DNA of 64,000 bases. Origin: a bacterium. GTDB lineage: Bacteria > Elusimicrobiota > Elusimicrobia > Elusimicrobiales > UBA9959. The number at the start of each line of letters is the position of its first letter. Within the stretch, counting starts at the first letter, position 1. The notes beneath the pieces were generated by a model. That model did no database searches. It was not told the DNA's origin and saw only the letters and a list, made by a program, of their open reading frames with translations. Location: positions 4,991 to 68,990 of the forward strand of contig JAJYJH010000012.1 in the NCBI GenBank assembly GCA_021789695.1, given 5' to 3'. The translations under genes and the position numbers were made by a program. This document shows, one piece after another, positions 50,749 through 63,509 of the stretch.

Positions 50749-51105
50749 ATGACCGACGAAGAGTTCGAAAGGCTGGCGGAGAAGGTTGTCGGCGGCCTGC
50801 CGGAGGAGTTCCGCGCCAGGCTGGAGAACGTCGTGGTCGTGGTCAGGCCGGCCCCGACTGCGGAGCAGGCGCGGCGCTTCGGCGCCGGGCTGTTGGGGCT
50901 CTACGAGGGGGTGCCGCTGACCGAGCGCGGGTCGTTCTACAGCGGAGCCATGCCGGACAAGATAACGCTTTTCAGGGAGAACCTTACTGCCGGCGCCGTC
51001 TCGGAAGCCGCCGTTGAGGGGTGCATAAGGCATACGTTGCTGCATGAGATAGCCCACCACTTCGGCATGGACGACGACGAACTCCGAAAAAAAGGGCTTT
51101 ACTAG
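50749..51105 (+). CDS. Zincin-like metallopeptidase (Zincin_1/DUF1025)
   Basis: 'LLGLYEGVPL', 'PDKITLF', 'HEIAHHFG'. Confidence 0.9.
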   Translation: MTDEEFERLAEKVVGGLPEEFRARLENVVVVVRPAPTAEQARRFGAGLLGLYEGVPLTERGSFYSGAMPDKITLFRENLTAGAVSEAAVEGCIRHTLLHEIAHHFGMDDDELRKKGLY

Positions 51106-51195
51106 GGACGCTGCTTCCTATCTTCCTAACTTTACGAAAGGAACGCGAAGTTTTTGACGAGCCGGGTTTAGGAAGAATAGGAAGCAGCGTCCCTA
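51103..51195. mobile_element. 93-bp non-autonomous REPIN/MITE-like element
   Basis: Inverted ends TAGGGACGCTGCTTCCTATCTTCCTAAC / TAGGGACGCTGCTTCCTATTCTTCCTAAAC. The 16-bp core is identical to the repeats flanking the Y1 transposase. Confidence 0.85.
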
Positions 51196-52491
51196 ACTGA
51201 GTTTTGCCTTGCGCAGGTAGCCGGTGGCGCTCAGTATCCTGGCATTCACGAAATCCCCCGCCTTCAGTTTTCTGCCTGGGGCAGGTTCCACTTCCACCCT
51301 GCCGTCTATCTCCGGGGCATCTCTGTAGGTGCGCCCGAAGCGCGGCGAATCCATCAGCAGTTCCAGCGTACTGCCCCTGAGGCCGGCGTTGATCCGGTCC
51401 ACCACGGCGCTCTGCGCCCGTATGAGCGCGTCTGCGCGCTCCGCCTTTACCCCTCCAGGGACCTGGTCAGGGAGGTCGGCGGCCGCGGTTCCTGGCTCGC
51501 GCGAATAGCCGAAGACACCCACGTTGTCGAACCCGGCCTCTTTTACGAAGGCGAGCAGCCTTTTGAAGTCGGCGGCGGTCTCGCCCGGGAAACCGACTAT
51601 AAAATTGGTGCGCAGCGCGATGTCCGGCATGGCCCGGCGCAGCTCCGCTATCTTCGCTTTTATGGAGGCGGCGGTGGAGGAGCGGTTCATGCGCCTGAGA
51701 ACAGGATCGGATATATGCTGCAGCGGCATATCCAGGTAGCGGACGACGCTTTTGTTGGTCTTCATTACCCCTAGCAGCTCTTTGGTCACCCGCTCAGGGT
51801 AGACGTACATAAGCCGCCACCAGCGCACGCCTTGTATCTTTACCAACTCCTTCAGCAGCCCGGCCAGGCGCGGCTTTCCGTAGAGGTCCAGGCCGTAGGA
51901 GGTGGTGTCCTGCGCTATCAGCGAGATCTCCACGGCGCCGCTGGCGGCCAGGCGGGCGGCCTCTTCCAGGACCGACTCGAAGGGCTTGGAGCGGAACGGG
52001 CCACGTATGGACGGGATCAGGCAGTAGGCGCAGCGGTTGCCGCAACCGTCGGCTATCTTCAGGTAGGCGCTGTGGGGAGCGGTCAGCCTGGCTTTCACGC
52101 GCGGGGAGTCTATGCGGGTATCGGCGGCCAGGATATAGCTCCTGCCGGCCGCTATAGCCTCTGCGGCCCTGGAGAGCGCGTTGACTCCCACCAGCGCGTC
52201 TATGCCTGGGAACTTTTCGAGCAGGGCCTCCTTCTCGCGCTCCACCAGACAACCCGCCACCAGGACCTTAGAGAGCCTGCCGCGGGCCTTCAGGCGCAGC
52301 AGGCGGCGTATTTCGCCCTCTGATTCCCTGACCGCGGAGCCCAGGAAAGCGCAGGTGTTGAGCAGCGCGGCGTCGGCGCCCTCCTCGGAGGGGACCAGTT
52401 CCCAGCCCGCCGCGGCCAGTTCCCCGGCCATGACCTCGGAATCGGAGAGGTTCTTCGGGCAGCCCAGCGAAACTATGAACAGTTTAGGCAT
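51193..52491 (-). CDS. rimO: Ribosomal protein S12 methylthiotransferase
   Basis: 'SLGCPKNLSDSE', 'NTCAF', 'YLKIADGCGNRCAYCLIPSIRG', 'DAPEIDG'. Confidence 0.96.
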   Translation of the reverse strand: MPKLFIVSLGCPKNLSDSEVMAGELAAAGWELVPSEEGADAALLNTCAFLGSAVRESEGEIRRLLRLKARGRLSKVLVAGCLVEREKEALLEKFPGIDALVGVNALSRAAEAIAAGRSYILAADTRIDSPRVKARLTAPHSAYLKIADGCGNRCAYCLIPSIRGPFRSKPFESVLEEAARLAASGAVEISLIAQDTTSYGLDLYGKPRLAGLLKELVKIQGVRWWRLMYVYPERVTKELLGVMKTNKSVVRYLDMPLQHISDPVLRRMNRSSTAASIKAKIAELRRAMPDIALRTNFIVGFPGETAADFKRLLAFVKEAGFDNVGVFGYSREPGTAAADLPDQVPGGVKAERADALIRAQSAVVDRINAGLRGSTLELLMDSPRFGRTYRDAPEIDGRVEVEPAPGRKLKAGDFVNARILSATGYLRKAKLS

Positions 52492-52495
52492 GGCG

Positions 52496-53266
52496 TCAAT
52501 GCTCCTCCAGGCGGTTTATGGGTATGAACGCGATCCAGCCCAGCAGCAGCATCGCGAACAGGAAGACCGGATAGGCCACCTCCGGGCCGTGGATGCCGGT
52601 TGTCGCGTACAACTCGGACATTCCTCCCATCCCGGAGAAAAGGCGCGGGACGGCCGCGGCTATGACGACGACACTGAGGCTCTTCATCAGGATGTCGGGG
52701 TTGTTGCTGATGACGGAGGACCGCGCGCCCACGAGCGACGCGAAGACGTTGGAGTAGATGGAGGCCTGCCTGTAGCATTGCTGGTTCTTTATCGTGATAT
52801 CGTCCATGAACTCGATGCTGCGCTGCAAAAAACCGGCCTTCCCGGCCGCGTGCCTGAGGCGCTCTATCACGCCCGTGTCGGCGGTAACCGCGTCGACGTA
52901 GTAGGCTAGACTCTTTTCCGGCGCGAACATGTTGATCAGGTGCTTGTTCTCCAGCGAGTAGGTGATCTTGGTCTCCAGCTCTTCGGAAATCATGCCGATG
53001 ACCTTCAGGTGTCCCATAAAATGGAAGATGGAATTGTAAATCAACTTCAGGAACACCTCGCGTATGCCCGAGACCTGCTTGAAGTACTTGTCCGAGCGCA
53101 TACTGACGTCCTCAGGCAGTGCCAGCACCAGCCTGTCCCTGAACAGGAACAGGCCCATAGACGTGACCTTGAACAGAAATTTGAAGATCAGCGCGAGGCG
53201 GCCCGGCTCCGTCTCAAGGCGCGCCGGCTCCAGCCGGCGGTCCCTGATGCGGTATTCCGTGATCAT
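52496..53266 (-). CDS. CorA-family Mg2+ transporter, shortened and diverged (possibly decaying)
   Basis: 'EKSLAYY', 'DDITIKNQQCYRQASIYSN', 'SVISNN...MKSL', 'GGMSE' and two C-terminal TMs. The N-terminal domain is short. Confidence 0.7.
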   Translation of the reverse strand: MITEYRIRDRRLEPARLETEPGRLALIFKFLFKVTSMGLFLFRDRLVLALPEDVSMRSDKYFKQVSGIREVFLKLIYNSIFHFMGHLKVIGMISEELETKITYSLENKHLINMFAPEKSLAYYVDAVTADTGVIERLRHAAGKAGFLQRSIEFMDDITIKNQQCYRQASIYSNVFASLVGARSSVISNNPDILMKSLSVVVIAAAVPRLFSGMGGMSELYATTGIHGPEVAYPVFLFAMLLLGWIAFIPINRLEEH

Positions 53267-53318
53267 CAAAAGGGCCCGCCGGCGCTGATTCTCCGGCGGA
53301 CTCGTTCCTTTCCCCCGT

Positions 53319-54227
53319 CTATCTGCCACCCGCTCTCGCCTTCGGTTTGAGCTTCGCGGCCACGGCCTCGCCTATCTGGGAGAGATTGTCCACCACGGTG
53401 GCGCCGGCCTTCCGGAGCGCCTCCACTTTGGAGGCGTGCGTGCCGGCTCCTCCCTCGACGATGGCGCCGGCGTGGCCCATCCGGCGTCCCGGAGGCGCGG
53501 TTTTGCCGGCGACGAAGCAGAAGACCGGTTTGGTCATTTCGCCTTTGATGTAACTGGCCGCGTCCTCTTCCGCGGAACCTCCGATTTCTCCGATCATGAT
53601 GACGGCCTCGGTCTGCCTGTCGGCCTCGAAGAGCTTCAACACGTCCACGAAGTTCATGCCCTGCACCGGGTCGCCGCCTATGCCGACGACGGTGCTCTGG
53701 CCGAGGTTCTGGGAGGTAACCTGCCAGACGGCCTCGTAGGTCAGCGTGCCGGAGCGCGAGACTATGCCTACGGAGCCCTTCTTGTGGATGTAGCCGGGCA
53801 TGATGCCGGCCTTGCACTCGCCGGGTGTTATCACTCCGGGGCAGTTGGGGCCTACGAGCGTGACGTCTCGGCCGGCGGCGCGCTGGGCATTCAGACGCTT
53901 CTTGACGCGCACCATATCCATCACCGGGATGCCCTCGGTAATGCAGATGATAACGGAGACGCCGGCGTCGGCGGCCTCGAGTATCGAGTCGGCGGCGTAC
54001 GGCGGGGGAACGAAAATCAGTGACGCGTTGGCGCCTGTGGCTTTGACGGCGTCGCGGGCGGTGTTGAAGACCGGCTTGCCGAGGTGCTCTGCGCCGCCTT
54101 TGCCTGGCGTGACGCCCCCGACTATATCGGAGCCGTACTCGAGGCACTGTTGGGCGTGAAAGGAGCCCTGAGCACCGGTGAAACCGTGTACTATCAGTTT
54201 GGTCTTTTTGTTCAAAAGTATGGACAT
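53319..54227 (-). CDS. sucD: Succinate--CoA ligase alpha subunit
   Basis: 'GGVTPGKGG', 'GPNCPG', 'SRSGTLTYE', 'RMGHAGA'. Confidence 0.98.
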
Positions 54228-54231
54228 GTCG

Positions 54232-55392
<1,161 letters not shown>

Positions 55393-55553
55393 CGGTCCTC
55401 CAGGTCTGCCGCGGCGCCAAAGCCCGCCCTTCGTCCGGCGTCGGGCGCGGGTTTGAACCCCGGTAAGTTAATTTGTAGTATAATTCATGACGCAAAGTCC
55501 AGCCCCGAGGGGCCTGGATTTTCCCGCTTTTAAGGCCAGAGAGGTTCCTGAAA

Positions 55554-57407
55554 ATGACCAAACCAAAGAGCAGAAACGTGAACGTCAGCGAGCTGAGCTC
55601 GGTCACAGTGCGCTTCGCCGGAGATTCGGGCGACGGCATACAGCTGGTGGGCAGCCGGTTCGCCAACGCCACGGCCGTGGCCGGCAACGAACTCAGCACC
55701 CTGCCGGACTACCCGGCCGAGATCCGCGCCCCCGCCGGGTCGCTGGCCGGCGTCAGCGGCTTCCAGATAAGCTTCGGCGACGAGTCAGTGCTTACCCCCG
55801 GTAACAAACCGGACGTGCTGGTGGTAATGAACCCGGCGGCCCTGGCAGTCAACCTTAAGAGCCTTGAGAAGGGGTCCATCATAGTAGCCAATTCCGACGC
55901 CTTCGTGCCGGCCGCGCTGGAGAAGGCGGGCTACACCGCCAACCCGCTCGAGGACGGGACGCTGGACAACTACCGCGTGATAGCCGTCCCGGCCAATACG
56001 ATGACGGAAAACACGCTTAAGGACTCCGGTCTGCCCAAGCCGCAGGTCCTTAAGTGCAAGAACTTCTATATGCTCGGCATCCTGTACTGGATGTACGGCC
56101 TGCCGCTGGAGTCCACCAAGGAGTGGATAGAGAACAAGTTCAAGAAGGCGCCGGAGATCGCGGCCGCCAATTCCAAGGTGCTGGAAGCCGGCTACGACTA
56201 CGCCGAGACCACCGAACTCTTTGACGCCCGCTTCCAGGCGAAAAAGAGCGCGGTGACTCCGGGTAAGTACCGCAACCTGACCGGCAACGAGGCCGCCGCA
56301 TACGCGCTGATTACCGCGGCAAAACTGCTAAAGAAGAAGCTCTATTATGGCTCCTACCCGATAACGCCGGCCTCGGAGATCCTGCATACGCTGGCCAAGC
56401 ACCGCGCCAACGACGTGGTGATCTTCCAGGCCGAGGACGAGATAGCCGCGATCTGCTCCACGATAGGAGCCGCTTTCTCCGGCGAGCTGGCCGCTACCGG
56501 TACCAGCGGCCCCGGTCTGTCGCTGAAGGCGGAGGCCTTGGGGCTGGGCGTCATAGCCGAGCTGCCTATGGTGATAGTGGACGTGCAGCGCGGTGGCCCC
56601 TCCACCGGCCTGCCCACGAAGACCGAGCAGTCGGACCTGCTGCAGGCCGTTTACGGCCGCCACGGCGAGAGCCCGCTGGTCGTGCTGGCCGCCTCCAGCC
56701 CGGCCGACTGCTTTCACACGACGCTCGAGGCCGCGCGCATAGCCGTCAAGTATATGACGCCGGTCGTAGTGCTGACCAACTCCTACCTTTCCAACGGCTC
56801 CGAGCCGTTCCGCATCCCGAAGCTCTCCGAGCTGCCGAAGTTCGAGCTGCCGCCGCGCCCTGGGCCGGGGGACTACAAGCCGTTCATGCGCGACCCCGAG
56901 ACGCTGGCCAGGCCCTGGGCGTGGCCGGGGCTAAAAGGCTACGAGCACCGCATAGGCGGCCTGGAGAAGCAGGACGTTACCGGCGCCATCAGCTACGACG
57001 CCGAGAACCACGAGAGGATGACCCAGCTGCGCGCCGAGAAGGTGCGCCGCGTGGTCAAGGAAATACCGCAGACCAGGATATACGGCCAGCCCGAGGGCGA
57101 GCTGCTGGTCGTGGGCTGGGGCTCGACCTATGGCGCTATAACCTCCGCCGTGACCAAGGCCAGACGCGAGGGCATCAGCGTGTCCTCGGTCCACATCCGC
57201 AACATCTTCCCGCTGCCGCCGGACCTGGGCGCTACGATGCGCCGTTTCCGGAAGGTGCTGGTGCCGGAGGAGAACACCGGTCAGCTGCGTATGCTCTTGC
57301 GCTCGGAGTATATGGTGGAGCCGCTGGGCCTCAACAAAATGCAGGGCCAGCCGTTGAACTCCGACGAGGTGCTGGAGAAAATAAAAGAGGTCCTTAGAGG
57401 TAACTGA
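55554..57407 (+). CDS. korA: 2-oxoacid:ferredoxin oxidoreductase alpha subunit
   Basis: 'RFAGDSGDG', 'YPITPASE', 'QAEDEIAA', 'TSGPG', 'QRGGPSTGLPT'. Confidence 0.93.
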   Translation: MTKPKSRNVNVSELSSVTVRFAGDSGDGIQLVGSRFANATAVAGNELSTLPDYPAEIRAPAGSLAGVSGFQISFGDESVLTPGNKPDVLVVMNPAALAVNLKSLEKGSIIVANSDAFVPAALEKAGYTANPLEDGTLDNYRVIAVPANTMTENTLKDSGLPKPQVLKCKNFYMLGILYWMYGLPLESTKEWIENKFKKAPEIAAANSKVLEAGYDYAETTELFDARFQAKKSAVTPGKYRNLTGNEAAAYALITAAKLLKKKLYYGSYPITPASEILHTLAKHRANDVVIFQAEDEIAAICSTIGAAFSGELAATGTSGPGLSLKAEALGLGVIAELPMVIVDVQRGGPSTGLPTKTEQSDLLQAVYGRHGESPLVVLAASSPADCFHTTLEAARIAVKYMTPVVVLTNSYLSNGSEPFRIPKLSELPKFELPPRPGPGDYKPFMRDPETLARPWAWPGLKGYEHRIGGLEKQDVTGAISYDAENHERMTQLRAEKVRRVVKEIPQTRIYGQPEGELLVVGWGSTYGAITSAVTKARREGISVSSVHIRNIFPLPPDLGATMRRFRKVLVPEENTGQLRMLLRSEYMVEPLGLNKMQGQPLNSDEVLEKIKEVLRGN

Positions 57408-57408
57408 C

Positions 57409-58407
57409 ATGGAAAACACCAAGCTTACGGCCAAGGATTTCTCCTCCAATCTCCCGGTTAAGTGGTGCCCGGGCTGCGGCAATTTCGCCATCCTTAACAT
57501 GATGCAGAAGGTGATGGCGGGTATGAACCTGCCCCACGAGAAGTACACGGTAATCTCGGGCATCGGCTGCTCCAGCCGCTTCCCGTACTACGTCAGCACG
57601 TACGGTTTCCACTCCATACACGGCCGCGCGGCCGCCGTGGCCACGGGCGTGAAGTTGTCCAACCCCGAGCTCGCGGTCTGGGTCATCACCGGCGACGGAG
57701 ACGGCCTCAGCATCGGCGGCAACCACATGCTGCACGCGATACGCCGCAACATCGGTCTGAAGATAGTACTGTTCAACAACCGCATCTACGCGCTGACAAA
57801 GGGCCAGGCCTCGCCGACCACCCAGCCGGGCACCAAGACTAAGACTACCCCGCTGGGTTCGATAGATTATCCCTTCAACCCGGCCAGCTTCGCTGTAGGT
57901 CTGGGCTGCACGTTCGTCGCGCGCGGCCTGGATAATGACATGGCCGGCACCACCGCGATACTGGAGCGGGCGGCGAAGCACGAGGGCACGGCCTTCGTGG
58001 AGATACTGCAGAAGTGCGTGCCCTTCTCGGACAAGGAGTTCGAGCCGCTGAAGGACCCGGCCCTGCGCGAGGACATGTTACTGCGCGTGGAGCACGGTAA
58101 GCCGCTGCTCTTCGGCAAGGACAAGAACAAGGGCATCGTGATAAAAGACATGAAGCCGGAGGTCGTGACCTTCTCGGGTAAGGTGCCTCCTGAGGTGGCG
58201 GTTTACGACGAGGCTAATCCCGGGCTGGCCTGCCTGGTAAGCGGCCTGACGCAGCCGGAGTTCCCGGTGCCACTAGGTGTGTTGCGCGCCGTACGCAAGC
58301 CCTCCTACGAGGAACTCTACTATGACCACGTTAAGGCTGTCGGAGACACGAGGGAGCACGAACTCGAAACCCTCCTCACCGGCCCCGATGCCTGGGAAAT
58401 GAAGTAG
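57409..58407 (+). CDS. korB: 2-oxoacid:ferredoxin oxidoreductase beta subunit
   Basis: 'WCPGCG', 'SGIGCSSR', TPP motif 'GDGD...IGGNH', 'NNRIYALTKGQ'. Confidence 0.93.
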   Translation: MENTKLTAKDFSSNLPVKWCPGCGNFAILNMMQKVMAGMNLPHEKYTVISGIGCSSRFPYYVSTYGFHSIHGRAAAVATGVKLSNPELAVWVITGDGDGLSIGGNHMLHAIRRNIGLKIVLFNNRIYALTKGQASPTTQPGTKTKTTPLGSIDYPFNPASFAVGLGCTFVARGLDNDMAGTTAILERAAKHEGTAFVEILQKCVPFSDKEFEPLKDPALREDMLLRVEHGKPLLFGKDKNKGIVIKDMKPEVVTFSGKVPPEVAVYDEANPGLACLVSGLTQPEFPVPLGVLRAVRKPSYEELYYDHVKAVGDTREHELETLLTGPDAWEMK

Positions 58408-59502
58408 GGACGCTGCTTCCCAACTTCCAAACTTGGAGTTGCGGCGTTGTTCCCCCCAGCCATTTATAGTGAACGCGGCACCCCGACAGGCAGTTGTCGG
58501 GGTGCTCTGCTATGATACTCCCGGAGAAAAAGGGGGGGGATATGCCAAGACACGCCAGGATAGATATGCCCGGTCAGATATACCACGCAATGGCGCGCGG
58601 CATCGAGCGGCGCGACATTTTTGTCGGAGAGAATGACTGTTCCGATCTGCGGGGGAGGGTTTCTGTATGGCTCAAAAACGCCGGAGCCAAATTCCTTGCA
58701 TGGCGTTCTATGCCGAACCATTTTCACCTGCTGGTGCTGCGGGGCGAGCGGCCGCTGTCTGAGATCATGCGCCACATCATGACTGGCTACGCGGTGCGCT
58801 TTAATTTGAAGTGCAAGCGCGCCGGGCATCTGTTCCGGAACAGGTATAAGGCCGTAATCTGTGGCGCGGAAAGCTGTCTGATGGAGGCTGTGTCCTGCGT
58901 CCATCTTAATCCCCTGCGCGGCGGGCAGGTGGCGACCCCGGAAGAACTTAATGGCTACGGGTGGTGCGGTCACGGCGCGGCGCTCACGGGGGCGTGGGAC
59001 GGTATTCTGGACAGGGATGAACTTCTTCTTATTTCGACGGAGAGGGGGGCGGCGGAGGGGTACTTGCAGGCTATCCGTGAAAAGGCCGGGGCAGGCGGCC
59101 GCGCTGAGCCCGCCGGGGCTGTGCTATCCTCCGGCCCTGTTGGCCTCTCACGGCAAAAGAACTCCGGGGATGGCGGGTGGAAACCACTGGACCGGCGGAT
59201 ACTCGGCGGGCGCGACTTCGTGGAATTGGAAAGCCGCGGGAGAAGATACTCCGGCGCTGAGAAGCCGCGCGGAAGTGGAAAGTGTTACTGGGGTGTCCAG
59301 GATGGAAATGCTTGGTTATAACCGCAAAAAAGGTCCGGCACAGGCGCGCGCTGTGTACTGCTATATCAGCGTCAGGGATGCCGGCGCCAGAGGCCGTGAA
59401 CTGATGCGGGAGCTGGGAATGACTTCCGGCGCCGTATCTAAGCTGGTGGCTGAAGGAAAAGCGCTGCTGAAAAAGTTTGGAAGTTAGGAAGCAGCGTCCC
59501 TA
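58405..59502. mobile_element. Inverted-repeat-bounded Y1/RAYT transposase element
   Basis: Left repeat 58405-58434 TAGGGACGCTGCTTCCCAACTTCCAAACTT. Right repeat 59473-59502 (reverse complement) TAGGGACGCTGCTTCCTAACTTCCAAACTT. 29/30 identical. Confidence 0.85.
58542..59487 (+). pseudogene. REP-associated-type HUH tyrosine transposase (Y1_Tnp) with C-terminal HTH; frameshifted, catalytic Tyr apparently lost
   Basis: 'MPRHAR...YHAMARG...IF', HUH 'MPNHFHLL', 'GHLFRNRYKA', 'SCVHLNP' (family YIHxNP), 'RILG..DFVE'. The HTH 'ARAVYCY...LGMTSGAVSK' continues in another frame after about 59228. Confidence 0.85.
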
Positions 59503-59508
59503 TTTACC

Positions 59509-61575
59509 CTATTTACCGCGGACATATTTGATGTGGCTGATGCGGGTGCCGGGGAAGTAGAAACGTAGTATCTGGCGGTAGTTCTGCCCGTACTTGCCGG
59601 CGAGGCCCGCGGCGCCGCTCTGGCAAAGGCCTACGCCGTGGCCCCAGCCTCCGCCGTAGATCCAGAAGTTGCGGATCCTGCCGTCCTTGAAGCGGTCGAC
59701 TTCCAGGTCGAACAGCGTGCTTTTCAGCGAGCTGAAACCCAGCAGGTTGCGTATCAGGTTCTCCTTGTCTATGTCTACGGTACGCCTGCTGCCTACGACG
59801 CGCAGCGAGTTGACATTGCCGGACGGGGCGCGGCGCAACGGTATTATGTTGAGTACCTTCCCCACTCTGTAGTCCCTGTTGATCCGATAGGTCATGTCCT
59901 TCTCGCGGATTATCTTCAGCCAGCGGAAGTTGGAGGCGTGCTCGTAACCGGGGTAATTGCAGTTGGCCGGGGGGTCGCTGGTTATCCACAGGTGCCAGTG
60001 CCACGGGTCCAGCGGGGCTTCGGTCTTGCCCGGAGCTATGTCCGGCTTGGTGACCAGATACGGGACGTCTCCCCAGCCGGTGACTTCCTTTGAGGCCTGT
60101 ATCCACCCCCCGGAGTTGGAGTGATAGAAGGCGTAAGCGGGGCGGCCATGGTAGGTCAGGATATCGCCTTCGGTGTCTATCACGGCGCGCGTGGTCGTAT
60201 TCGCCTCTCCGTACTTGCCGTGGTAGGCCTGGCAGTGCTCGCTGTCGCAGAGATGGTAGCCCTCCTTCCGGTGCTGGCCGCCGTTCGCCATGCGTATCAG
60301 CACCTGGGTGCGGGCTATCACGGCCTGCGCCTTAAGAGCTTCATAGGGCCACTGCGGGTCCACCTCGCTGGGGACCACGCCAAGCAGGTACTGTTCCATG
60401 TCCACCACGTTCACCACGCCTATGCCGCGCGGCGGATCCGGGTAGAGCTCCACGTAACCGCGGTACTGGCGGTCGGCCGCGCGGAACCAACGGTTGCGCG
60501 TTCTGGAGGTCGCGTCGAAGATGACCGTGCCGTTCTTCTTCTCCGGGACGGCCAGGATGGGCCCGCTGAAGCGGCCGTAGACGGTGCCGTCGGCGCCTTT
60601 CAGGACCACTCGCCCGCCGTCGGCCAGCAGCGTCCAGGTCTCGTCCGGCGGGATCTCGGCGTACACCTTGCCTGTGGCCTTGCCCTTTATCGTCAGTCCC
60701 TCGAAGGACTTTAACCTCAGCAGGTTGTTGAAGCCCTGGTGGCCCATGGAGGTGGTGCCTATGCCCACGCGGATCTGGACCGACCGGGAAAGATTAGCCA
60801 GCGCGTCCACCGGTTCCATGACCAGCGGTTTGGTTATGTGGAACGGAGGGCGTATCTCCTCCGGTTGCTTGGTCAGTTTGCCTTCCAGTATCTTCATCAT
60901 CTTCGAGGCTACCGGATGCCCGGGAGCGTAATCCAGCACGCGGTAGTACTGGTTCCAGGCCTCGTTGAATTTCCCCTGTCTGACGTAGAGACCGGCAAGC
61001 GGCAGGCGGGCCTCCACGAAGGAGGGGTCCTTGCGCAGCGCCTCTATCAGCTCCTGTTCAGCCTTGGCGTACATCTTGAAGTTCATGTAGTTCCAGGCCA
61101 GGATGTAGTCCGCGCCGGCCAGGTCTGGCCGCAACTTCTTGTAGTTGGCCAGGTGCTCCAGCGTCCTGGCCTTGTCGCCGAGGTTGGAATAGACGCTGCC
61201 AAGGCCCAGTTCGGCCCGGGCGTCGCCCGGCTCCAGTCTGATGGCTGTTTCGAAGGCGGACCGGGCCCCGTTGTAGTCCGCCAAGTGGAAGCGCAGCCAG
61301 CCGAGCTCGGTGTAGATGTCGGCGTTCTGCGGGGCGCGTTCCAGGGCCCTGACCATTATGTCGGCCGCCTCGTAGTAGCGCCCGGCCTGGCGCAGGCACA
61401 TGGCCGCGTCCAGCAGCGGCTCGGGATCGGTCCGGTTATCCGCGGCCAGCAGCGTATAAGAGGAGGCGGCCCGGCTGAGGTCGCCTTTGAGATAAAGTTC
61501 GTACGGGGTTTCAGCCGGGAACGCGGCCCGGGATTGAAACAGCAGGAATAAAAGAATAAGATTGAGTTTCCGCAC
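59509..61575 (-). CDS. Secreted TPR + SpoIID/LytB domain protein (peptidoglycan lytic transglycosylase-like)
   Basis: GTG start and signal peptide, several TPRs, then 'YRG...VNVVDMEQYLLGVVPSE...EALKAQAVIART', 'CQAY', 'GGGWGHGVGLCQSGA'. Confidence 0.9.
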   Translation of the reverse strand: MRKLNLILLFLLFQSRAAFPAETPYELYLKGDLSRAASSYTLLAADNRTDPEPLLDAAMCLRQAGRYYEAADIMVRALERAPQNADIYTELGWLRFHLADYNGARSAFETAIRLEPGDARAELGLGSVYSNLGDKARTLEHLANYKKLRPDLAGADYILAWNYMNFKMYAKAEQELIEALRKDPSFVEARLPLAGLYVRQGKFNEAWNQYYRVLDYAPGHPVASKMMKILEGKLTKQPEEIRPPFHITKPLVMEPVDALANLSRSVQIRVGIGTTSMGHQGFNNLLRLKSFEGLTIKGKATGKVYAEIPPDETWTLLADGGRVVLKGADGTVYGRFSGPILAVPEKKNGTVIFDATSRTRNRWFRAADRQYRGYVELYPDPPRGIGVVNVVDMEQYLLGVVPSEVDPQWPYEALKAQAVIARTQVLIRMANGGQHRKEGYHLCDSEHCQAYHGKYGEANTTTRAVIDTEGDILTYHGRPAYAFYHSNSGGWIQASKEVTGWGDVPYLVTKPDIAPGKTEAPLDPWHWHLWITSDPPANCNYPGYEHASNFRWLKIIREKDMTYRINRDYRVGKVLNIIPLRRAPSGNVNSLRVVGSRRTVDIDKENLIRNLLGFSSLKSTLFDLEVDRFKDGRIRNFWIYGGGWGHGVGLCQSGAAGLAGKYGQNYRQILRFYFPGTRISHIKYVRGK

Positions 61576-61638
61576 GACGTCTATATCGTATGAAATTATT
61601 GGCGGATTATAGAATACGCCTCTCGATATAAAGGAGCT

Positions 61639-62208
61639 ATGCCGGAGAACCGTTCCGACGCGGAACTGATGGAGGCCTTCAGGGCCGGCGACGCCGGCGC
61701 CATGGGCTTGCTGATGGAGCGGCACAAAGCCGCCCTCTACGGTTATCTGTTGCGCCTTACCTCGCGGGCCGACGCCGCCGACGATATTTTCCAGGAGGTC
61801 TTTCTGAAATTGATCGGGAACCAGACGGCATACGGCGAAATGGAGAGGCTCAGAGCCTGGCTGTTCACGGTGGCCCGCAACGCGGCCATGGACCGCTTCC
61901 GGCGGGAGTCCGTCAGGGCGGAGTTGCCGCTGGACGGGGAGGAGGGGCGGCCCGGTCCAGCGGAGACCGCCCCCTCCTCCGAACCGGGCCCGGCGGAGGC
62001 GTTCGACAACAAGACCATGGGTGAGCGCATCGAGGCGGCGCTGGCCTCGCTCTCGGAGGAGCAGCGCGAGGTTTTCTACCTGCGGCACTACTCCGGCCTC
62101 TCGTTCAGGGAGATAGCGGCGATGCTGGAGGTGCCGATAGGGACCGTCCTGGCCAGGATGAGCCGCGCCGCGGCTCGGCTGCGCGACAAGCTGGGGGACC
62201 TGCAATAA
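61639..62208 (+). CDS. ECF-family RNA polymerase sigma factor
   Basis: 'SDAELM', 'ADDIFQEVFL', 'WLFTVARN', 'GLSFREIAAMLEVPIGTV'. Confidence 0.95.
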   Translation: MPENRSDAELMEAFRAGDAGAMGLLMERHKAALYGYLLRLTSRADAADDIFQEVFLKLIGNQTAYGEMERLRAWLFTVARNAAMDRFRRESVRAELPLDGEEGRPGPAETAPSSEPGPAEAFDNKTMGERIEAALASLSEEQREVFYLRHYSGLSFREIAAMLEVPIGTVLARMSRAAARLRDKLGDLQ

Positions 62209-62246
62209 AAAACGGGGGCTCGGCGTTGTATCTACAGGAGCCTATT

Positions 62247-62726
62247 ATGAGCTGCGAATATTCGGAAAAACTAATTCTTTACGCGTACGGCGAAGCCGGG
62301 GCGGACCTGGCGGCCGAGGTGGACGCGCATCTGGCCGGCTGTCCGGTATGCCGCGGCGAGGCGGCCGCGTTGAAGGCCGCCGGGGAATTCCTCGCGGCGT
62401 CCACTGCGGAGCCTCCCCCATGGGGCCAAGCCGCCGTCATGCGGGCGGCCAGTGAGACAGTCCCGCTCCTCCGCCGCTTCGCTTTCGGCTGGCGCGAGTT
62501 CCTTCTTTCCGGAGCTCTGGCCTCGCTCGCGGTCGTGGTCTTCTCGGTCGCAGGCCGCCGGACCTCGGCCGACCTGGCCTGGAACAGCGGGATAAATTCC
62601 AACCTGGATTCGGTGGAGTACTCCGTATACCAGGCGCAGACAGATCTCGTTTCTTCGCCGCAGGATTGGAATTACCGGTTCAGCGCGCTGGAGGACGAAG
62701 CTCTGGAACTTGGCAAGAACGTATAG
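62247..62726 (+). CDS. Zinc-binding anti-sigma factor (zf-HC2) with TM helix
   Basis: 'HLAGCPVC' (HxxxCxxC), one TM, directly after the ECF sigma gene. Confidence 0.88.
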   Translation: MSCEYSEKLILYAYGEAGADLAAEVDAHLAGCPVCRGEAAALKAAGEFLAASTAEPPPWGQAAVMRAASETVPLLRRFAFGWREFLLSGALASLAVVVFSVAGRRTSADLAWNSGINSNLDSVEYSVYQAQTDLVSSPQDWNYRFSALEDEALELGKNV

Positions 62727-62765
62727 GACGGTATTAAAACGGTATTAAACAGGAGGGCTTATATT

Positions 62766-63509
62766 ATGAAGAATGGTAAGGTGCTGTGGACGCTGGCGTT
62801 GGCGCTGGTTTTAACCCCGGCGCTGGCCGCGGCGCAAGAGGGAGCGCCCGGCGGTCAGCAGGAGGCGGGTCCGGCTGCGCAGTCGGGGCAGGCCGATTGG
62901 CGGCCAGGGCCCGGTATGGGCGGGGGCGTGGGTATGGGGCCCGGTATGGGTGGGTGCATGGGTATGGGGCCAGGTATGGGCGGGGGCGTAGGGATGGGGC
63001 ATGGCGGTATGATGCGCAATAAGATGTGGAGGCCGGGCATGGGCGGGCCAGGCTTCATGGCTATGCCGCCTGAAAAGACCTTGGCGGAGATAAAGAAGTA
63101 TGATCCGGACTTTGCCAGGAAAGTGGAGGCCCTGCGCGACAGCGAACCGGCCAAGTACATGATGGTGATGCAGATGGCCGGCAGGGCGCTGTTCGCGGCC
63201 AGGATGGACCAGAACGAGAACATGGAGCGGGACGCCGTAAAAGACCTGTCACTGGACTTTCAGAGCCGAGAACTCTCGCTGCAGTACTCGAAGGCCTCCG
63301 ACGCGGAGAAGAACGCCGTGAAGGCTAAACTGCGGGCCGTCCTTTCCGACCTCTTCGACGTCAAGAGCCGCATTCAGGAACAGCGCGTCAAGCGCATGCA
63401 GGCGGATATAGCCCGCCTGCAGAAGAGGCTGGACGTGCGCAAGGCCAACAAGAATAAAATAGTGGACCTGCGTCTTGACCAGCTTACGGGGGAGGGCTTC
63501 GGCTGGTAA
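62766..63509 (+). CDS. Periplasmic Spy/CpxP-like helical protein with Gly/Met-rich repeats
   Basis: Signal peptide, (GPGMGGxxGM)3, charged coiled-coil C-terminus. Third gene of the ECF locus. Confidence 0.65.
   Translation: MKNGKVLWTLALALVLTPALAAAQEGAPGGQQEAGPAAQSGQADWRPGPGMGGGVGMGPGMGGCMGMGPGMGGGVGMGHGGMMRNKMWRPGMGGPGFMAMPPEKTLAEIKKYDPDFARKVEALRDSEPAKYMMVMQMAGRALFAARMDQNENMERDAVKDLSLDFQSRELSLQYSKASDAEKNAVKAKLRAVLSDLFDVKSRIQEQRVKRMQADIARLQKRLDVRKANKNKIVDLRLDQLTGEGFGW
62907..62996 (+). repeat. 3 x 30-bp coding tandem repeat (GPGMGGGVGM)
   Basis: Units start at 62907, 62937 and 62967. Confidence 0.9.

Follow-up and report, generated by a model that had tools for sequence, protein, structure and literature searches.

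A probable decayed TIRtron and its dispersed terminal repeats in a genome of the Elusimicrobia

Relation to described transposase and repeat systems

Insertion sequences of the IS200/IS605 family carry subterminal hairpins, have no terminal inverted repeats (TIRs) and occur in multiple identical copies. A different arrangement was described in 2013 for genes that resemble REP-associated tyrosine transposases (RAYTs; REP, repetitive extragenic palindrome) and are accompanied by long non-palindromic TIRs instead of REPs, and was named TIRYT/TIRtron (Di Nocera, De Gregorio and Rocco, 2013, BMC Genomics 14:522, PMC3733652). According to the main text of that study, a GGGGWSAS motif is common to some of these TIRs, TIR families are moderately abundant and occur as singles, dimers or groups, REPs are located after genes, and tips that supply stop codons are reported for GTAG REPs and not for TIRs. 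Later work placed 20 of 26 TIRYT in TnpAREP subclass 2.1, whose members are described as having C-termini resembling Bac_DnaA_C, HTH_23 or HTH_28 and no REP nearby (Quentin, Siguier, Chandler and Fichant, 2018, BMC Genomics 19:475, PMC6006769). Here we analyse a stretch of 64,000 nucleotides (the window; contig C50, positions 4991-68990, of a 2.45-Mb genome, G000, with 62.8% GC in 63 contigs) and conclude, with a probability of about 0.8, that window positions 58405-59502 are a decayed TIRtron, that is a TIRYT gene of TnpAREP subclass 2.1 with a C-terminal helix-turn-helix (HTH) like that of DnaA domain IV, enclosed in 30-nt TIRs; that 51103-51195 holds two more TIR units between convergent genes; and that the genome contains about 24 such units. 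Since this kind of element was described in 2013, the case is a new example and not a new system.

The likeness to TIRtrons extends to a RAYT-like Y1/HUH protein, long non-palindromic TIRs at set distances from the gene, a tip with a run of G and dispersed single and dimeric units. In addition, several TIRYT/TIR pairs can share one genome, as in G000, whose contig C13 bears another, intact one. The window element differs from the published description in that its gene is a pseudogene, in which the conserved combination of HUH motif and catalytic tyrosine is lost (Cys119, broken frame), in its host, and in that its tips supply TAG to 11 of 24 neighbouring frames, as far as the main text allows this comparison. 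The host phylum, Elusimicrobia, receives no mention in the main text of either study, and our literature search returned the term TIRYT from these two papers only, with no later study and no bench work found. The locus is therefore best filed as a decayed TIRtron/TIRYT member in a phylum where the kind had not been described. Assignment to subclass 2.1 follows that subclass's domain description, a Y1 core with a C-terminal Bac_DnaA_C/HTH extension; compared with the main text of the subclass paper, the subterminal part of the TIR looks, by eye, like two lineage-variable tandem units. The preliminary description of this locus had proposed a RAYT-REPIN system with a non-canonical REP type, and had itself named membership of a catalogued family as grounds for giving that proposal up. 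A RAYT-branch gene with a dispersed repeat of its own is indeed present. The repeat unit is not a REP-like palindrome, and the arrangement is the already published TIRtron/TIRYT and subclass 2.1 type, as those main texts describe it; in spirit, the proposal thus falls on the grounds it had named itself. Identity with IS200/IS605 (IS608, ISDra2) was considered and rejected; the HUH/Y1 fold is shared, whereas the window system has TIRs, single ends without a hairpin, one gene copy per lineage and many repeat units without a gene.

Repeat ends and the transposase pseudogene

The ends of the element are defined by an exact 16-mer that occurs four times in the window, at 51103-51118 (+), 51180-51195 (-), 58405-58420 (+) and 59487-59502 (-), against 0.05 occurrences expected and none of 100 shuffles with at least four. 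Each copy is followed by a second CTTCC unit. The arms that frame the gene (58402-58434 and 59473-59505) are 33 nt long, 94% complementary and 1038 nt apart, and the doublet arm at 51103-51133 pairs with 59472-59502, again at 94%; the inner two 16-mers, those of the 93-bp pair, face each other over a spacer of about 35 bp. The repeats thus lie where the preliminary description placed them, inverted around an HUH gene and around a short spacer, and its remark that a conserved GTAG foot is missing holds as well, TAG being frequent and the base before it variable. Its proposal of a hairpin inside one repeat did not survive folding: three single 32-nt ends gave -0.3, -2.5 and -0.3 kcal/mol, with z-scores of +0.72, -0.58 and +0.89 relative to shuffles, and formed no hairpin. 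The entire 93-nt pair folds into a long hairpin (z -8.54). A search of this pair against Rfam returned a sub-threshold match to a miRNA model (29 versus 96 bits), which we took as chance.

The open reading frame (ORF) at 58542-59321 matches Pfam Y1_Tnp with 36.9 bits (cut-off 23), in agreement with the earlier view that repeats also found elsewhere frame a RAYT-branch Y1/HUH gene here. The best NCBIfam model is REP_Tyr_transpos (NF047646), which the window copy matches with 46.2 bits and four intact homologs with 71.9, 67.6, 58.0 and 74.7 bits, all below the cut-off of 80. The C-terminal HTH that had been noticed is present, although in a second frame (58951-59487) distinct from that of the HUH part, and the gene is therefore frameshifted. 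A protein search returned 1207 relatives at E<=1e-3; among the best 120 of these, the closest come from metagenome-assembled genomes (MAGs) of Elusimicrobia and Deltaproteobacteria, most have lengths of about 300-330 aa, and PF08299 (Bac_DnaA_C) is present in many. Similarly, a 13-sequence profile searched against the PDB found DnaA domain IV (2hcb, 1l8q; E 1.4e-3) and Pfam Bac_DnaA_C matches three of the four intact homologs weakly, while a sequence search of the PDB with the single protein gave chance matches only. The ortholog in genome G009 (P0002) is the closest intact relative; an AlphaFold (AF2) model of it, built on a 47-row alignment, has a predicted local distance difference test (pLDDT) value of 85.2 and consists of an N-terminal alpha/beta domain, a disordered linker at residues 192-215 and a helical C-terminal domain. 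Its best solved fold is the E. coli REP-associated tyrosine transposase, 4er8_A (template-modelling score to target 0.73), with the ISDra2, IS200 and IS608 transposases next.

Comparison with the relatives shows how far the window copy has decayed. In the 47-sequence alignment from which invariant columns were taken, these include Tyr119, Gln99, Tyr102, His60 and His62, and we take Tyr119 to be the nucleophile from its Y-x-x-x-N-P stretch. The window copy keeps the HUH motif and has Cys119 and Arg99 in place of the invariant Tyr119 and Gln99. The G009 ortholog is intact, syntenic and 322 aa long, with 75% identity at the level of the Y1 protein and 82% in the DNA; the neighbouring proteins of the two genomes are 98%, 93% and 74% identical. 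Relative to it, the window copy has lost 5 nt near 59229, where the frame shifts, 12 nt near 59275, and 1+5 nt near 59026-59040. On the evidence of Cys119 and the broken frame, the window copy is a dead pseudogene of the TIRYT kind, where the preliminary description had spoken of a transposase. The HUH motif and the catalytic tyrosine are conserved in the orthologs of genomes G009, G019 and G020. As a separate test of decay we counted differences at columns invariant in the other sequences, and set the measure aside because by itself it does not discriminate: the window copy differs at 6 of 59, distant homologs at 6-10 and close ones at 0-2.

Within the element, the left TIR (58405-58434, +) is followed by a leader up to the start codon (58435-58541, +), the HUH/Y1 catalytic part (58542-59231, +), the frameshift site (59225-59233, +), where 5 nt are missing, and the HTH part in the other frame (59227-59487, +), which is 78% identical to residues 233-322 of the ortholog; the right TIR lies at 59473-59502 (-). 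Near 58478-58506 the leader has an inverted repeat with the same sequence in both G000 and G009, despite the 82% overall identity of the element; a role as a regulatory hairpin or as a binding site is conceivable. The tip of the left TIR is the TAG stop of a thiamine-pyrophosphate (TPP) enzyme gene (2-oxoacid:ferredoxin oxidoreductase beta-like, 57409-58407). On the right, a 9-bp tandem duplication (59498-59515) spans the TIR tip and the end of a SpoIID/TPR gene (59509-62205, -); the stop of that gene sits in the second 9-bp copy, and in G009, which is without the duplication, the tip itself is the stop.

In the 93-bp pair, the tip of the left arm (51103-51132, +) supplies, at 51103-51105, the stop of a Zincin_1 gene (50749-51105), and the tip of the right arm (51166-51195, -), the reverse complement of 51193-51195, is the TAG stop of a radical-SAM methylthiotransferase-like gene (51193-52491, -). 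The spacer between the arms (51133-51165) is unrelated to those of 24 other pairs; a short stretch of it recurs, by eye, in the G009 pair at the same site.

Two further observations concern other DNA of this genome. By tblastn, G000 holds no second copy of the window gene and one 30%-identical relative on contig C13 (L218:1366-2366), an intact Y1 gene of 239 aa without the long C-terminal HTH (Pfam Y1_Tnp, 63 bits). The TIR that frames it is another one, present twice at either flank, and has a tip in agreement with the published GGGGWSAS; an 18-nt piece of this TIR has 26 copies in G000 at up to two mismatches, and the reversed control has none. Elsewhere in the window, at 62907-63000, three G+C-rich tandem copies of 30 bp, 91% identical, probably encode a Gly/Met-rich repeat.

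The repeat family, its stop codons and its sites in related genomes

Counting the repeat throughout the genome, as the preliminary description had suggested, revealed a family. An nhmmer profile of the ends, run at E<=10, marked 30 places in G000, about 23 of them clearly significant, from which we count about 24 ends: six short inverted pairs (86-121 bp), the pair framing the gene, a doubtful 1.9-kb pair on contig C22 and eight or nine singles. Nearly all of these units lie directly 3' of genes. We then surveyed 43 genomes of the genus with a 22-nt TIR pattern, using the reversed pattern as control. The pattern occurs in 27 of the 43 (0-47 copies per genome, none in 16), the reversed pattern in none, and among 14 genomes of a sister family the pattern was found in none. 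Intact genes within the same ends are present in G009, G019 and G020, in the latter two in other genomic contexts; per genome of the genus there are 1-8 full-length Y1 relatives, which sort into several classes by identity. Ends equal to the 22-nt master make up 6 of 24 in G000 and 36 of 47 hits in G019, where the gene is intact, which suggests that the family in G000 is now fossil. In a sister TIR variant, seen at G041:C7:84983-86119 and G019:C60:8277-10051, GCTTCC-TAA-CTTCC is replaced by GATTCC-TAA-ATTCC; this variant has pairs of its own and lies around or next to a full-length Y1 gene of its own. Several enzyme/TIR lineages thus coexist in the genus.

The short inverted pairs do not behave as copies of one element. 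We compared the spacers of 25 pairs (19 in G019 and 6 in G000; 6-62 nt), which share only words of 7-9 nt, all at E >= 0.02. Because the spacers are unrelated while 36 of 47 hits in G019 are identical, the pairs are not copies of a single miniature element, and we rejected a REPIN or a miniature inverted-repeat transposable element (MITE) as the copied unit. The 93-bp piece had been regarded as a miniature non-autonomous element, an idea that the unrelated spacers and the eight or nine ends that stand alone do not bear out.

From public MAGs we fetched 80 homolog loci (L069-L148) and examined 75. At 53 of the 75, from several phyla, the gene has the same tip on either side, similarly spaced, a run of G followed by ACG, usually with A before it and mostly 41-65 nt upstream of the start codon; at the other 22 the tip was not seen on both sides, many of these loci being cut by contig ends. 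The TIR frame is hence a trait of the family, seen also around the intact genes of G009, G019 and G020, and the framing at so many distant loci indicates that gene and ends travel together. Behind the tip the sequence changes with the lineage; by eye it mostly consists of a unit of about 8 nt and a second one in tandem, which in the window read CTTCC-T/A-AA twice. At many homolog loci a TTGACA-like hexamer comes immediately after the upstream TIR, on the side of the gene, as if the TIR bordered on the promoter of that gene.

In G000, the ends have a particular relation to neighbouring genes. At 11 of 24 ends the tip TAG is itself the stop of a frame of 124-937 codons, and other frames stop 3-9 nt before the tip; as a control, of the 1622 TAGGG occurrences genome-wide 10.5% close a frame that is 120 codons or longer (P ~1.5e-8 for 11 of 15 TAG-tipped ends, 1.1e-5 for 11 of 24). 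In G009, stop-codon tips are found at 7-8 of about 24 ends. Moreover, TA precedes the G-run at most ends of both genomes.

The site of the 93-bp pair offers an empty counterpart, as had been looked for. In G017, G041, G056 and G006 the two convergent genes overlap by their stops (CTAG/TTAA) with nothing between them; other congeners have a terminator-like hairpin there, and G009 a shorter, decayed pair. Removing the G000 pair and keeping one TA yields overlapping stops, and insertion at that TA is the simplest reading. Sequence by itself does not separate a duplication of TA from a target TA joined to a TA borne by the element. At the TPP-enzyme/SpoIID junction, which holds the Y1 gene in G000 and G009, G019 has an 82-bp pair whose tips are both stops, and seven congeners have a terminator-like hairpin. 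For a pair on contig C19 no empty site was found, only G009 having kept both flanks together, about 1 kb apart and with an extra gene between; for a single on contig C41 there was none either, its flanks not being neighbours in the other genomes.

The C19 pair (L043:501-621, G000:C19:9161-9281) encloses a strong hairpin with a 17-bp stem that resembles a native two-way terminator of convergent genes, with a TIR unit between each stop and the terminator. At the corresponding site in G009 (L068, C20, ~61718-62729) the left TIR is at the same stop and is followed by about 1 kb more with the extra ORF; this locus also holds a tiny palindrome of two tip-like sequences.

Competing explanations and what the element means

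Three other explanations of these repeats have to be weighed. In a canonical RAYT-REPIN system a domesticated single-copy RAYT would copy hairpin-forming REP doublets, and several features recall it: the closest solved fold is E. coli TnpA-REP (4er8) and the best NCBIfam model REP_Tyr_transpos, one copy of this gene lineage exists in G000 and is framed by its own repeat, the full 93-nt pair folds as a long hairpin (z -8.5), and the repeats stand after genes, as is reported for REPs in the main text of Di Nocera et al. (2013, PMC3733652), and are often inverted pairs. The single unit is, however, non-palindromic and without a conserved G before TAG, so that there is no GTAG foot as in E. coli or in the Pseudomonas REPINs; the enzyme has an extra HTH; the window copy and the four intact homologs score 46-75 bits against the cut-off of 80; pairs lack a conserved spacer and vary freely in length (59-121 bp); and congeners contain 1-8 full-length family members. 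We consider this explanation improbable. A cut-and-paste MITE that duplicates TA, IS630/mariner-like or Correia-like and moved by a DDE enzyme with the Y1 gene as passenger, seems to us most improbable of all. It would account for ends that are true TIRs, for TA before the G-run at most ends of G000 and G009 and for the one usable empty site, which is compatible with insertion at TA. Yet the Y1 gene is the only gene framed by two clear ends in G000 (the weak 1.9-kb pair on C22 aside; no search aimed at DDE transposases was made), the same tip frames the Y1 gene at 53 of 75 distant loci, spacers are not conserved, and TA stands on both sides of just 2 of 19 G019 pairs.

The units might also be mainly sites that the host keeps at the 3' ends of genes, as RNA hairpin terminators or as protein-binding sites, with a domesticated Y1/HTH protein and rare spread. 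Their position at the stop codons of convergent genes, the G019 pair at the TPP-enzyme/SpoIID junction where seven congeners have a terminator-like hairpin, and the pair at the methylthiotransferase site that G000 and G009 have in common despite about 78% flank identity would fit such a role, and similar behaviour is reported for REPs (Di Nocera et al., 2013, main text, PMC3733652). Against it stand the range of 0-47 copies among congeners with none in 16 of 43, the drifting of the G000 copies and the near-identical G019 copies, which point to a recent burst. We hold a mainly host-kept role to be unlikely.

Under the preferred interpretation as a TIRtron, an intact enzyme would use its HTH to bind the TIR in double-stranded form, at two tandem units of the CTTCC(T/A)AA type, and its HUH/Tyr centre would cut at the conserved tip (A/TA, G-run, ACG). 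New sites would thereby receive TIR units and TIR-framed DNA; often the site would be the TA of a stop codon, where the tip would restore TAG, and the entity that spreads may be the TIR unit rather than the whole pair. As the enzyme of G000 is dead (frameshift, Tyr to Cys), its TIR copies would be fossils that drift apart.

A number of points weigh against this interpretation or parts of it. Transposition itself is deduced from comparing sequences, and the reading of the tandem units by the HTH rests on inspection of homolog loci; recognition of the TIR by the C-terminal domain is moreover doubted by Quentin et al. (2018), in the main text (PMC6006769). The window tip (G-run, ACGC) fits GGGGWSAS at 7 of 8 places, whereas the C13 element fits fully. 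The stop-codon habit is not general: in G019 it holds for 3 of 38 ends and, across the family, for 5 of 97 outer TIRtron ends, and on the latter count we rejected it as a trait of the whole family. Likewise, among the 19 G019 pairs A precedes the G-run in 13 and T follows the C-run in 18, while TA is present on both sides in only 2, which argues against a general target duplication; we rejected TA duplication as a rule, and it is still compatible with G000, G009 and the one empty site. Given the unrelated spacers, what spreads may be single units or pairs. Finally, the protein query found no full-length homolog in G021 or G049, which have 11 and 13 copies of the repeat respectively, so that either TIR families persist without their enzyme or something else moves them.

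For annotation, our analysis means that the window Y1 gene should be labelled a pseudogene and that TIR tips supply real stop codons to neighbouring genes. On a broader level, we tentatively put forward, as an idea that we hold less likely than not, that Y1 enzymes with an HTH form a modular HUH system guided by double-stranded DNA, in which the sequence read by the DnaA-like HTH would be a pair of tandem 8-nt units specific to each lineage, with no single-strand hairpin involved, and the HUH centre would act on a tip shared across phyla; in this lineage, single TIR units would be laid on the TA of stop codons and the stop re-created. If true, HTH-bearing Y1 enzymes would work differently from every studied Y1 transposase. 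The tip at 53 of 75 loci together with the variable tandem units provides a hypothesis for how a Y1 enzyme without hairpins may find its ends. Moreover, the genus represents a natural series, from G009, G019 and G020 with an intact enzyme, G019 having many near-identical TIRs, through G000 with a dead enzyme and drifting TIRs, to G021 and G049 with TIRs and no detectable enzyme and 16 congeners with none, and this series could show whether the enzyme drives the repeats.

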